A stretch of 20,849 nucleotides of DNA from Candidatus Micrarchaeota archaeon. Lineage in GTDB: Archaea; Micrarchaeota; Micrarchaeia; Anstonellales; Bilamarchaeaceae. A program made the translations under genes and the position numbers. Location: the NCBI GenBank assembly GCA_040754495.1, contig JBFMCO010000019.1, positions 1 through 20,849 of the forward strand, in the 5' to 3' direction. Below are positions 17,204-19,972 of this stretch, in pieces (position 1 is the stretch's first letter; each line of letters opens with the position of its first letter). The notes beneath the pieces are model-generated. The model searched no databases. It was not told where the DNA came from and worked only from the letters and a program-made list of their open reading frames with translations.

Positions 17204-17818
17204 TCATCGGGCGCCTTCGACGCACGACTCCTCCATATAATCATTGGTGATGCCTGTGCAGAGCGAAGGGTCCTGCTTCTTGCTCGCGACGCTTGAGATG
17301 CAGATGTCCTTATAGACGCTGTCCGCTATCTGTCCGCATACGCTGACATCGCCCGTCGCCTCCGCGATGCCTGACAGGCAGGTGTTCTCATACAACTCCT
17401 CCTTCGCTTTGGCGCATATCGAGGCATCGTTTGTCTCAGTCCCAACGGTGACCACGCACGTATCATAATAGATGGTCATGTTCTCGCCGAGGCTCAGGAT
17501 AGGGTCACACTTGCCCGCATCCCTTGACTCCTCGGCAACAGTCATGTGGCAGCCTGCCTTGCACGTGAACAGGAGGTCCTGGTCCACAAGGACGTTGCAG
17601 TTGGTGATGCACTCGTTCAGGTCCGTCACCGAGCCTCCGGACGGGGGCGTCCCTCCGCTCGGGGTTCCGCCTGAAGGGGCGCCTCCTGAAGGCGCTCCGC
17701 CCGCGGGCGAGCCGCCTGCCGGCCCGGTCTGCTGGCCGCCCTGCTGGGGCGCACCGGGTGCCGTGCAGCCTGCGATTATTACAATCGCTGCGAGTATGGC
17801 GATAGCTATCAATCTCAT
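17204..17818 (-). CDS. Predicted lipoprotein with Gly/Pro linker and four Cys-rich 26-aa repeats
   Basis: IIIAG|C lipobox; GG[SAT]P[SA] linker; C-x13-C-x11 repeats; SD GAGGTG at 17824-17829 favours ATG 17818 or 17821. Confidence 0.8.
   Translation of the reverse strand: MRLIAIAILAAIVIIAGCTAPGAPQQGGQQTGPAGGSPAGGAPSGGAPSGGTPSGGTPPSGGSVTDLNECITNCNVLVDQDLLFTCKAGCHMTVAEESRDAGKCDPILSLGENMTIYYDTCVVTVGTETNDASICAKAKEELYENTCLSGIAEATGDVSVCGQIADSVYKDICISSVASKKQDPSLCTGITNDYMEESCVEGAR
17630..17716 (-). repeat. Intragenic ~15-nt tandem repeat encoding GG[S/A/T]P[A/S]
   Basis: GGSPA GGAPS GGAPS GGTPS GGTPPS GGS read from the translation. Confidence 0.8.
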
Positions 17819-17850
17819 CATCACACCTCGCAGTGACTATCACTTGAAAC

Positions 17851-17858
17851 TTTATTAA
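17851..17858 (-). promoter_or_regulatory. TATA box (TTAATAAA) of the Cys-repeat lipoprotein gene
   Basis: About 30 nt upstream of the start on the minus strand. Confidence 0.55.
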
Positions 17859-17876
17859 CCTGTCCGGGTTCTTGCG

Positions 17877-17888
17877 AAAAACGAAAAA
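17877..17888 (-). terminator. T-rich terminator candidate (TTTTTCGTTTTT) for the small HTH operon
   Basis: T tracts 12 nt after the stop at 17901 on the minus strand. Confidence 0.4.
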
Positions 17889-17900
17889 TGGGGAGTGGCG

Positions 17901-18140
17901 TCACCTGCCAAACGCCCTCTGGAGGGATTCGGCGAAGAATGCCTCGTTCTCGCCCCGCGACTGCCGTCTTTCCCTCGTGCCAGGGTTCTCGAACATCTCG
18001 TTCAGCGCGGCAGCCACCTGCCTGACGCCTTCAGCATCGAGCGGGCGAAGGCCTTCGGCCATCCCCCGTCCGGAGAATCCAGTCTTTCCGTTCCCCGCGA
18101 CGACCGGAGCCCTGACAGCAAACCTGCCTCTCTCTTTCAT
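17901..18140 (-). CDS. Small hypothetical protein (79 aa)
   Basis: Starts 4 nt after the upstream stop (TGATGATATG); third gene of a tightly packed trio. Confidence 0.45.
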   Translation of the reverse strand: MKERGRFAVRAPVVAGNGKTGFSGRGMAEGLRPLDAEGVRQVAAALNEMFENPGTRERRQSRGENEAFFAESLQRAFGR

Positions 18141-18144
18141 ATCA

Positions 18145-18477
18145 TCAGCGCTCCATGTAGTAAGCCACGGCCTCTTCCCTGAAGCCGCCGACAGCGACCC
18201 GCATCGGGCGGCAGTCCAGGTCCAGGTCGGTCGGCACCGGCGTCACGACCACGACGCTTACGACGCCGTCGGAGCAGAGCATGTCGAAATCATCGAATTC
18301 GGCAGCCTTCCGCCTGGCCTCCATGGCCTCTTCCTTCGTGACCTGCCTCGCCCCGCGCAGCCTGCCGCAAGGGTCCCACATCGGAGGCTCGGGCGCAGGC
18401 TTGGCAGCATCGAAGGCTCCGGGTTTTGTGTTTTGGGTTGTGCTTCCCGGCCTCATTGCCTTGGCAGCCATGTTCAT
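18145..18477 (-). CDS. Small hypothetical protein (110 aa)
   Basis: ATG 18477 overlaps the HTH gene stop (ATGA); acidic C-terminal part with a VVSVVVVT strand. Confidence 0.55.
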   Translation of the reverse strand: MNMAAKAMRPGSTTQNTKPGAFDAAKPAPEPPMWDPCGRLRGARQVTKEEAMEARRKAAEFDDFDMLCSDGVVSVVVVTPVPTDLDLDCRPMRVAVGGFREEAVAYYMER

Positions 18478-18740
18478 GCGCGCATCACCGCCGCCGGCAC
18501 ATAAGGCGCATCCTGCACCGCCCTCCACACGGTCATCCGGGACACGCCGAACATGTCCGCGAGCTCCCGGAAGCTGTACGGCCTGCTGTAATACGCTTCA
18601 AGCAGCCTTACCAGCTTATCCTGGTCAAGAGAATTCGGCCTTCCCGCGTTAGAGACGGGTTTCGTGTTCCGTGTTTTCGGTTTTGTTCTCTTTCTAAAAT
18701 TAGATTCGACTACTGTCGCTGGTTCCTCACTGGATTTCAC
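18474..18740 (-). CDS. Stand-alone helix-turn-helix protein (Hin/resolvase-type DNA-binding domain)
   Basis: GRPNSLDQDKL...SFRELADMFGVSRMTVWRAV matches the GRP + HTH (GVSRxTvyR) pattern; GTG start after AAGGGTGGT. Confidence 0.72.
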   Translation of the reverse strand: MKSSEEPATVVESNFRKRTKPKTRNTKPVSNAGRPNSLDQDKLVRLLEAYYSRPYSFRELADMFGVSRMTVWRAVQDAPYVPAAVMRA

Positions 18741-18868
18741 ACCACCCTTTTCTGACCAAAAGACAACACCCTTTTGTCATTTTTTCACCTCATTTGCCGC
18801 TTCCTTGCATTTTACTTTCTGCACATTCGCGGGTGCAGTCCGCTGTTATTATTTAAGTGGCAGGAACA

Positions 18869-18876
18869 TTTATAAA
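18869..18876 (+). promoter_or_regulatory. TATA box (TTTATAAA) of the VKOR gene
   Basis: Ends 30 nt upstream of ATG 18907; palindromic, so it could also face the HTH operon. Confidence 0.6.
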
Positions 18877-18906
18877 CGCGTGTCACAGATTGGTCATTCG
18901 GGATAT

Positions 18907-19290
18907 ATGCCGCCGCTGCCCGTAGCCGCCCTTTCCGCCGCCTGCCTGCTCATATCCGCATACGTCTTCTACTCCAAGCGCTCCGGAAGGAAGCTGCGCT
19001 GCATGATAGGGAAGAGCTGCGATATCGTGACAGGCAGCCGCTATGCGGTGACTTTCGGAGTGGAGAACAGCCTGATGGGTATGATATATTACTCGGGCCT
19101 GCTGCTCTGGGCTGCCCTTCCGCTCCCAATCCCCGCGCCTGCGGTCATTGGCGCCGCGCTTGTCGCCGCCCTGTTCTCCGCCTACCTCACCTGGCTGCAG
19201 CTCTTCGTAATAAGGGAGATGTGCGACTGGTGCATGGTCGTGAACATATCCAATTGGGCCATGCTAGCCATCCTCCTCCTGGGCCCGTAG
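18907..19290 (+). CDS. Vitamin K epoxide reductase (VKOR) family protein
   Basis: Four hydrophobic helices, loop Cys pair (C-MIGKS-C), conserved S.YA..FG, and CDWC (CxxC) at TM4; the ORF-track start at 18664 is in AT-rich upstream DNA. Confidence 0.9.
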   Translation: MPPLPVAALSAACLLISAYVFYSKRSGRKLRCMIGKSCDIVTGSRYAVTFGVENSLMGMIYYSGLLLWAALPLPIPAPAVIGAALVAALFSAYLTWLQLFVIREMCDWCMVVNISNWAMLAILLLGP

Positions 19291-19377
19291 CTGGTTCCCG
19301 GTCTCCAGTCCCGCGTTTCCGGCCTCCCGTTGCATCCTGCCGCGAACTGCGCATCCCGGCCTGCTGACGGGAATTTG

Positions 19378-19385
19378 TTTATAAA
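19378..19385 (+). promoter_or_regulatory. TATA box (TTTATAAA), likely promoter of rps17-rpl14-rpl24
   Basis: The only clear TATA box between VKOR and rps17; implies a ~250-nt leader. Confidence 0.55.
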
Positions 19386-19549
19386 GTTTTGTATCCAAAT
19401 AAACGATACCCGTATTGTAAGCCACTCGATTCGGCCCGACATTGGGGCCGGCAGCGGGCAGACACCTTCCGCATCTGCGGACAGATCCGCCCGCCTGAAA
19501 TTGGGAGAGCTCATCCGCTAGCGAGCAATCCCCATGCGGCATACGCCAG

Positions 19550-19672
19550 GGTGATTTTTATGGCATTGACCGGCGATGTCGCGATCGGCGAACCGATCGC
19601 GAGCATGCTCATGAACGAATCGTCGTTCATGACATCCGGTCAATAATAAAAATCGTGGTGATTTTTATGGCA
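19550..19672. repeat. Branched palindromic element flanked by 16-nt direct repeats GGTGATTTTTATGGCA
   Basis: Direct repeats at 19550-19565 and 19657-19672; nested inverted repeats read base by base (see findings). Confidence 0.9.
19560..19646 (+). other. Putative 28-codon upstream ORF (MALTGDVAIGEPIASMLMNESSFMTSGQ)
   Basis: Starts at the duplicated SD and ATG; stop TAA at 19644-19646; whether it is translated is unknown. Confidence 0.35.
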
Positions 19673-19972
19673 GAAAAATGCGACGACAAGAAATGCTTCC
19701 GGCATGGAGGCCTGAGCGTCCGGGGCGAAACGCTTTCGGGCAAGGTAGTCAGCGCCAAGAGCAGGCACACCGTGATAGTCGAGCGGTCCATCACGCAATA
19801 CTTCCCCAAGTACAGGAAGTGGGCGCGCGGCCACTCGAGGATAGCCGCGCACAACCCGGGCTGCATCAACGCCAAGGTCGGCGACATGGTCGACCTTGCC
19901 GAGACGAGGAAGCTCAGCAAGACCAAGGCCTGGACCGTAGTGGGCCTGTCGGCAGAGGGTGAAAAGTCATGA
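19667..19972 (+). CDS. rps17: 30S ribosomal protein uS17
   Basis: CDDKKCFRHG, VRGETLSGKVVS, AAHNPGCI, ETRKLSKTK; SD GGTGA at 19657-19661. Confidence 0.96.
   Translation: MAEKCDDKKCFRHGGLSVRGETLSGKVVSAKSRHTVIVERSITQYFPKYRKWARGHSRIAAHNPGCINAKVGDMVDLAETRKLSKTKAWTVVGLSAEGEKS

Follow-up and report, generated by a model that had tools for sequence, protein, structure and literature searches.

A composite palindromic element at the rps17 start of a Micrarchaeota genome: probably an inserted copy of a mobile repeat family

Introduction

Dispersed palindromic repeats are well studied in bacteria. In the REP, BIME and REPIN sequences, which occur with RAYT, the basic unit is a short hairpin with a conserved 5' tetranucleotide, and two such units in inverted orientation constitute the mobile doublet (Bertels and Rainey 2011, PMC3116915; PMC3337134). 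The Rickettsia palindromic elements (RPE), which are bacterial and measure about 100-150 bp, are found in frame in housekeeping genes, in RNA genes and in intergenic regions, and have no known transposase; the prokaryotic MITEs include archaeal representatives from Sulfolobus, Halobacterium and Haloquadratum (PMC10969869). No description of palindromic mobile repeats in Micrarchaeota or DPANN archaea was found in the literature.

The window considered here is a stretch of 20,849 nt from a Candidatus Micrarchaeota archaeon (contig JBFMCO010000019.1, positions 1 to 20,849), belonging to a genome of 1.63 Mb in 72 contigs with 59.5% G+C and a completeness of about 80%. An initial annotation, made from the letters of the window, had pointed out a T-shaped palindromic element with a duplicated SD and start codon in front of rps17, and had offered two readings of it: a dedicated translational switch of rps17-rpl14-rpl24, or a non-autonomous mobile element in which two REP-like hairpins stand inverted to each other, accompanied by a target duplication. 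The structure of the element, its distribution and its insertion sites are presented below and compared with the described systems.

Results

The rps17 locus and the anatomy of the element

The ORF starting from the ATG at 19667 was identified as Ribosomal_S17 by domain search (E = 1e-21). The gene and the parts of the element are as follows.

19550..19565, plus strand: left copy of the 16-nt direct repeat, with decoy SD and ATG GCA, running on from the native rps17 leader (repeat search)
19560..19646, plus strand: uORF of 28 codons from the decoy ATG through the core, with its stop in the AT-rich tail (ORF list)
19565..19573, plus strand: left arm of the outer hairpin, pairing with 19636-19644 (inverted-repeat search; arms also in subfamily copies)
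19577..19634, no strand assigned: T-core of 58 nt, made of TGTC, hairpin A (19581-19600), the palindrome GAGCATGCTC (19601-19610), hairpin C (19611-19630) and GACA (covariance model R1, 92.5 bits)
19636..19644, plus strand: right arm of the outer hairpin (inverted-repeat search; subfamily copies)
19645..19656, plus strand: AT-rich tail of the subfamily, containing a 9-nt anti-RBS at 19646-19654 (conserved in four of four subfamily copies)
19657..19672, plus strand: right copy of the direct repeat, with the working SD GGTGAT, the ATG at 19667 and rps17 codon 2 (repeat search)
19667..19972, plus strand: rps17 (uS17), intact, with rpl14 and rpl24 next (ORF and Pfam evidence)

The anatomy given in the initial annotation was borne out. 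The two 16-mers are 100% identical, the outer stem pairs (19553-61/19646-54, 19565-73/19636-44 and 19575-80/19631-36) are present, and two perfect hairpins, each with an 8-bp stem and a 4-nt loop, flank the 10-nt palindrome with no linkers. The decoy ATG at 19560 opens the uORF, whose stop ends at 19646. The anti-RBS is complementary to the spacer and start in both copies of the direct repeat, and the alternative pairing claimed for it, between 19646-54 and 19660-68 across a 5-nt loop, was recovered by inverted-repeat search. The T-core is two-fold symmetric and represents an inverted doublet of the unit TGTC-hairpin-GAGCA, since its conserved letters read alike on both strands and hairpin A is an inverted hairpin C in form. 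The region 19540-19690 folds as a T shape with -61 kcal/mol (z = -5.1), a stability reached by none of 200 shuffles, and the fold is beyond chance. The parallel drawn earlier with a parvoviral terminus is a likeness of shape only.

Upstream of the element, a structured leader of about 140 nt (19405-19549) lies 5' of the rps17 SD and after a TATA-like motif. Both leader and motif are conserved in sequence across many Micrarchaeota rps17 loci, an example being the hairpin at about 19431-19451. The leader gave no Rfam match, nor did any Rfam family come near threshold within 19300-19800; independently of the element, this stretch may itself act as a ribosomal-protein leader. The native rps17 start (19661-19679) is itself a small inverted repeat, with a 6-bp A/T stem and a 7-nt loop containing ATGGCAG, and may for this reason be prone to single-strandedness. 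The RNase P protein gene and rps17 are neighbours in many archaea; in this window about 2.4 kb separates them, with genes for a cysteine-rich lipoprotein and a membrane protein in between (17204-19290).

Copies and distribution of the repeat family

The initial annotation had proposed a search for further copies, and these were found both in the genome (5 with the rps17 copy) and on metagenome contigs (40). The whole-genome search with the 123-nt stretch gave five full T-core copies in 1.63 Mb, the rps17 copy included, all built on one plan: a 4-bp closing stem TGTC/GACA, a hairpin, the invariant GAGCATGCTC and a second hairpin. Their core length is 58-65 nt, and the hairpin stems vary yet always pair. 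One further copy is located upstream of tRNA-His, with an 11-nt flanking repeat at the 5' end of the tRNA that includes its first 8 nt; another copy lies upstream of radA in the opposite orientation, a third between two co-oriented genes and antisense to both, and a fourth downstream of glnA and of a tRNA-Arg gene. The mixed contexts of these four copies fit a mobile repeat and not a cis-regulator.

Covariance model R1, built from the five genome copies, scored them at 70-92 bits and detected weaker variants as well, two of them inside tRNA introns. Within the genus, R1 matched 18 of 24 genomes, the richest having about 18 copies; of 16 genomes from other families of the order, one gave matches. 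Among metagenome contigs 53 exact-pattern matches were recorded. Of these, 40 have near-perfect hairpins, pairing at least 6 and 8 of the 8 stem positions, and most come from projects on sediment or groundwater; no hairpins are present in the remaining 13, which are chance matches. Viral contigs gave no exact-pattern match. The core architecture occurs in more than 100 copies elsewhere, in many projects, with 99% pairing in both hairpins.

The sequence GAGCATGCTC occurs 16 times in the source genome, against about 2 occurrences expected from base composition, and only five of these lie in T-cores, the remaining 11 being outside. The tRNA genes of the same genome are also rich in hairpins. Introns were predicted by ARAGORN in 26 of 32 tRNA genes, many of them 80-250 nt long; a few predictions with introns of more than 600 nt are probably false. 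The long introns (for example at C28:24611-24909, C50:13444-13707 and C9:25249-25465) are built from hairpin modules of the GAACG...CGTTC type and share with the T-core the 8-bp stem and 4-nt loop. They differ from it in their junction letters and are presumably spliced from RNA, whereas the rps17 copy carries no bulge-helix-bulge motif.

Structural constraint on the core

The 36 full-length copies from many genomes align gaplessly. Both hairpins are 99% paired in this alignment, with double-sided changes in 15 of 16 pairs, and the covariation score of 0.52 compares with 0.18 for shuffles, none of 500 shuffles reaching 0.52; the signal collapses when the partners are slid by 1-3 columns. TGTC/GACA and the central palindrome are nearly invariant. 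It is likely that the invariant junction is a protein recognition site and that the stems have a structural role. An alternative fold, in which hairpin A would reach into the central palindrome with the help of a GGC upstream, was rejected, the GGC being conserved only within the source genome and not in the 36-copy alignment.

Within the rps17 copy, comparison by hand of hairpin A with the reverse complement of C confirmed 11 of 20 identical positions, eight of the nine differences forming four compensatory pairs. These swaps had been taken as an argument for selection on structure. Pairing has indeed been kept, but templated repair from arm to arm can mimic such a pattern and leaves selection unproven. 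The same holds for the family alignment: covariation is no proof of structural selection because such repair gives double changes in one step. As read from the alignment, the covariation points to pairing that has been maintained, and selection at the RNA level is not implied.

Evidence for insertion and for mobility of the core

As the initial annotation had suggested looking for, empty sites are present in sister genomes: at the rps17 loci of 19 close relatives a single SD and ATGGCA come directly after the conserved leader, with no element between them. An R1 core was found at rps17 in none of 34 Micrarchaeota rps17 loci, so that these can be regarded as empty sites; the sole R1 match among them lies 1.9 kb upstream of rps17, before an L29-like gene. 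The closest rps17 relative compared has 90% protein identity, so the empty sites are not from the same species. In the source genome the left repeat continues the native leader and the right repeat continues the coding sequence, which is the pattern of an insertion with target duplication.

In relatives, the core was also found in frame inside the genes of GatD, ArgRS, GluRS and a hexapeptide-repeat enzyme, where copies of 54-60 nt add 18-20 residues. The in-frame coding copies in sister genomes are the following.

L144 and L129: GluRS
L132 and L145: ArgRS
L148: GatD
L134: further in-frame coding copy

The orthologues of GatD, ArgRS and GluRS in the source genome are uninterrupted, with a clean gap at the insertion points. 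Three sister-genome genes share one 54-nt core variant, read in one frame.

Genome G003 contains five copies, 97-100% identical over their shared stretch, of a composite of about 165 nt in which the core is nested within a small hairpin. In genome G047 the same outer hairpin is found with the loop TTTA and without a core; relative to it, 58 nt have been added in G003 between TT and TA, with no duplication or at most one ambiguous base. The copies of G003 and G045 sit at contig ends, as expected of a recent high-copy repeat, the G003 contigs ending inside the element. A larger parent element behind the G003 contig-end copies was considered and rejected, since the repeat stops 62 nt past the core and is a MITE of about 165 nt rather than an IS. 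In genome G015 an outer hairpin with the arms of the rps17 element, again without a core, is present upstream of uS15. The rps17 element is a composite, as is that of G003. Judged from these comparisons, the core appears to move on its own, entering both hairpin loops and coding DNA with no duplication that could be detected.

Flanking repeats and start-site subfamilies

Flanking direct repeats of 11-19 nt were found in about 10 of 70 copies, most copies having none; in mismatched-flank controls nearly all repeats were 12 nt or shorter. Besides the 11-nt repeat at tRNA-His already mentioned, they mark the following gene borders.

rps17, SD-ATG: 16 nt
purD, SD-ATG: 19 nt
two tRNA 3' ends: 12 and 15 nt

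The subfamily to which the rps17 element belongs is recognised by the 9-nt arms, the AT-rich tail and the left border TATGGCA. In addition to uS17, it occurs before uS15 (G015) and before uL10 and uL18 (metagenome contigs), which makes four organisms. Its copies always directly follow a decoy start ATGGC(A), and downstream of them there is always a real start, with GGTGA, an A/T-rich spacer and ATGGC. In the alignment the uS15, uL10 and uL18 copies retain a uORF, of 28-29 codons, and all four copies share the anti-RBS tail. Older-looking copies show a decayed left repeat, and the distance from tail to RBS varies by about 18 nt. Contig L190, examined as a possible second rps17 copy, was discarded as its downstream ORF is short and not S17.

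Three tandem hairpin units are arranged upstream of uS15 in G015 (L166, G015:C40, 960-1215, minus strand). Each unit has a copy of the start context before it and an AT-rich tail after it, the T-core being present in the first unit only.

A second subfamily precedes purD, an ATPase gene and an L29-like gene, and its inner arm is complementary to the RBS that these genes share. At the ATPase locus the left copy carries codons of the purD type, not those of its own gene.

Search for the mobilising enzyme

The HUH/TnpA-REP-type transposase that the initial annotation had proposed to look for was not encountered: Y1_Tnp (PF01797, RAYT/TnpA) gave no match in the source genome, which is about 80% complete. 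Within the genus it turned up in three of 24 genomes, none of them copy-rich; G003, G010 and G011 gave no match. Four diverged TnpB genes of the IS605 OrfB type, without TnpA, are present (C5:28873-30015, C46, C53 and C66). TnpB was rejected as a partner, the ends of the four elements being unrelated to the T-core; with no TnpA and four TnpB with different ends, the T-core does not have the ends matching resident TnpA/TnpB hairpins that define an IS200/IS605-derived PATE. Among the multi-copy ORF families of the source genome, all either were TnpB or had no Pfam match, with no transposase domain otherwise, and no parent IS with T-core ends was found among them.

One cas1 gene is located at the start of a contig (C5:152-994). 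A duplication of the casposon type was rejected, its 14-15 bp being a misfit with the 11-19-nt range of repeats. DUF559 gave one weak match, neither multi-copy nor tied to the copy-rich genomes. GIY-YIG domains were likewise detected only in single genes of about 520-650 aa per genome, which were neither multi-copy nor linked to the copy-rich genomes and whose size and copy number would fit UvrC.

Discussion

Nature of the element and alternative explanations

Multi-copy status, empty sites, nesting, in-frame coding copies and the maintenance of the hairpins could all be documented for the core. The mobile-element reading is supported by the multiple copies, the empty rps17 sites, the in-frame coding copies and the nested copy with its empty sister; of what had been proposed under it, the multi-copy state (in genome, genus and metagenomes) and the single SD-ATG at rps17 in sisters hold, whereas the HUH/TnpA-REP partner is missing. 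On this comparative evidence the rps17 feature is very probably an inserted copy of a non-autonomous, composite mobile palindromic repeat family of the MITE/REP/RPE kind. This degree of confidence applies to the identity of the feature as an inserted copy and does not extend to the mechanism proposed below; likewise, the term mobile refers to presence and absence among genomes rather than to an observed event.

The main competing explanation is that ribosomal protein genes are controlled by a translational switch or attenuator, in which the long fold would hide the decoy start and free the true RBS, and translation of the uORF, or binding of a protein to the T-core, would free the anti-RBS tail to pair with the true RBS. 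In its favour, the decoy start, the 28-29-codon uORF and the anti-RBS tail recur before four ribosomal protein genes in four organisms, a stretch complementary to the downstream RBS exists in the second subfamily too, and the anti-RBS is able to pair with either copy of the direct repeat. The recurrence could reflect function rather than target preference. However, the element is missing at rps17 in the 34 relatives and is therefore not a conserved regulator of the rps17 operon, and copies of this core are also found within coding genes, next to tRNA genes, antisense to their neighbours and in both orientations. In silico, though not decisively, the anti-RBS stays on the decoy copy (probability unpaired 0.03) and the true SD is no more hidden than with the element removed (probability unpaired 0.49 vs 0.37); the tail-to-RBS distance, too, varies by about 18 nt among the copies. 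Nor does the element show, among the 34 relatives, the orthologous conservation with covariation that characterises a ribosomal-protein leader or riboswitch, and no Rfam family reached threshold. A switch is thus an unlikely account of the feature, and the initial proposal of a dedicated rps17-rpl14-rpl24 switch as the reason for the element finds no support, the element being absent at rps17 in 34 of 34 relatives and its core occurring elsewhere. A secondary effect on translation may nevertheless exist.

The inverted hairpin doublet, each hairpin with its conserved 5' tetranucleotide, would also suit a true REPIN moved by a RAYT (HUH-Y1) whose gene belongs to the 20% of the genome missing from the assembly, or which is supplied by another cell. 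The incompleteness of the assembly leaves room for this, but the distribution of Y1_Tnp over the genus avoids the copy-rich genomes and the four TnpB elements have unrelated ends, so that a resident or visiting RAYT appears quite improbable. It may further be asked whether the element is a bulge-helix-bulge intron, cut from the rps17 leader by the splicing endonuclease. The micrarchaeal EndA is of broad specificity (PMC3239211), and the long introns in tRNA genes of the source genome, two of them with weak R1 matches, are made of the same hairpin modules. Against this, the base of the fold shows one 3-nt bulge followed by a 10-bp helix and not two 3-nt bulges 4 bp apart; restoration of the original sequence would need a self-complementary 4-mer within the repeat, and none is present; and the coding copies stay in frame, a constraint that splicing would not impose. 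An intron is accordingly a very remote prospect. An assembly artefact, that is a chimeric palindrome produced by amplification or by the assembler, comes to mind with any metagenome-assembled genome, yet on indirect evidence it is scarcely credible here, because independent assemblies hold the same composite with different stem letters. The core family is moreover known in more than 100 copies across many projects, and between the rps17 element and the contig end there are another 1.2 kb, in which coding sequence goes on.

Comparison with described repeats

With REP and REPIN sequences the T-core family has in common many dispersed copies, clusters of units and long persistence in a lineage, together with the hairpin unit, the flanking tetranucleotide and the inverted doublet; a resident RAYT was not found. 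It is unlike a REPIN in that the two hairpins are not paired together but are neighbours, separated by the invariant 10-nt palindrome and jointly closed by a 4-bp stem, and also in its archaeal host, in some intragenic copies and in some flanking repeats of 11-19 nt. The in-frame insertions in GatD, ArgRS and GluRS, with uninterrupted orthologues, resemble those of the RPE; the differences, in a comparison by description, are the length of 54-60 nt, the defined doublet and the mostly intergenic location. As with MITEs, the elements are small, non-coding and dispersed in multiple copies, they break assemblies, and some have target duplications at their flanks; inverted repeats bound them, both as outer arms (19565-73/19636-44) and as the closing stem of the core. 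Unlike MITEs, they have no fixed duplication length, the innermost module having no duplication at all, and no parent IS with the same ends was found. By analogy, the family seems to work most like REP/REPIN doublets and, in coding genes, like RPE.

Proposed mechanism

The rps17 feature probably arose when a composite was inserted between rps17 codons 2 and 3 with a 16-bp direct duplication, by which an intact SD-ATG-GCA stayed joined to rps17. Its inner layer is the 58-nt T-core with its two inverted TGTC-hairpin-GAGCA units, and its outer layer the 9-nt arms and AT-rich tail, which define the subfamily found only before starts of the form GGTGA, (A/T)-rich spacer, ATGGC. Tentatively, and with somewhat less than even confidence, a structure-specific protein might read the invariant junction letters and move the core via single-stranded DNA. 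This is compatible with a further suggestion, put forward with similar reserve from a few loci, that the repeat-flanked composite might spread between similar RBSs by short-homology copying, for example when a break at one RBS is repaired from a repeat-element-repeat donor or when the replication template is switched. Such copying would explain the variable repeats of 11-19 nt and the decayed or chimeric left copies; variable repeats and donor-like codons are hard to obtain from a fixed-stagger transposase. Growth of the palindrome by fold-back copying could have produced, as a by-product, the stretch that is complementary to the repeat. Two features would make the element tolerable at rps17: its duplication restored the RBS, and its long stem keeps the decoy start hidden. 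Regulation by it at this gene, if any, would be a side effect.

It is tempting to go further and to see in the subfamily a self-spreading translational cassette, homing by short identity to the RBSs of highly expressed genes, duplicating the RBS and bringing with it a decoy start, a 28-codon uORF and an anti-RBS, while the core would owe its movement to a structure-specific enzyme, other than RAYT, Ssn or DUF559, of a type that has not so far been associated with repeats. We regard this as speculative and on balance doubtful; if true, it would mean that unrelated ribosomal protein genes have been given the same attenuator.

Significance

The T-core repeats constitute a new family of palindromic mobile repeats in archaea; their core is a three-way junction that nests in hairpin loops, some copies lie in frame in coding genes, and one subfamily is tied to RBSs. 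In genomes of only 1-1.6 Mb the family has spread into coding genes and other hairpins, and to tRNA flanks and start codons. As it is found without any of the partner enzymes so far proposed for such repeats, it offers a clean case for a new mobilisation route. For annotators of these genomes, decoy starts, inserts of 18-20 residues in aminoacyl-tRNA synthetases and tRNA introns built of hairpins are to be expected. The duplication of the RBS illustrates how an essential gene can take an insertion in its first codons without harm, and it may also be a route by which identical leader structures are handed to unrelated genes.
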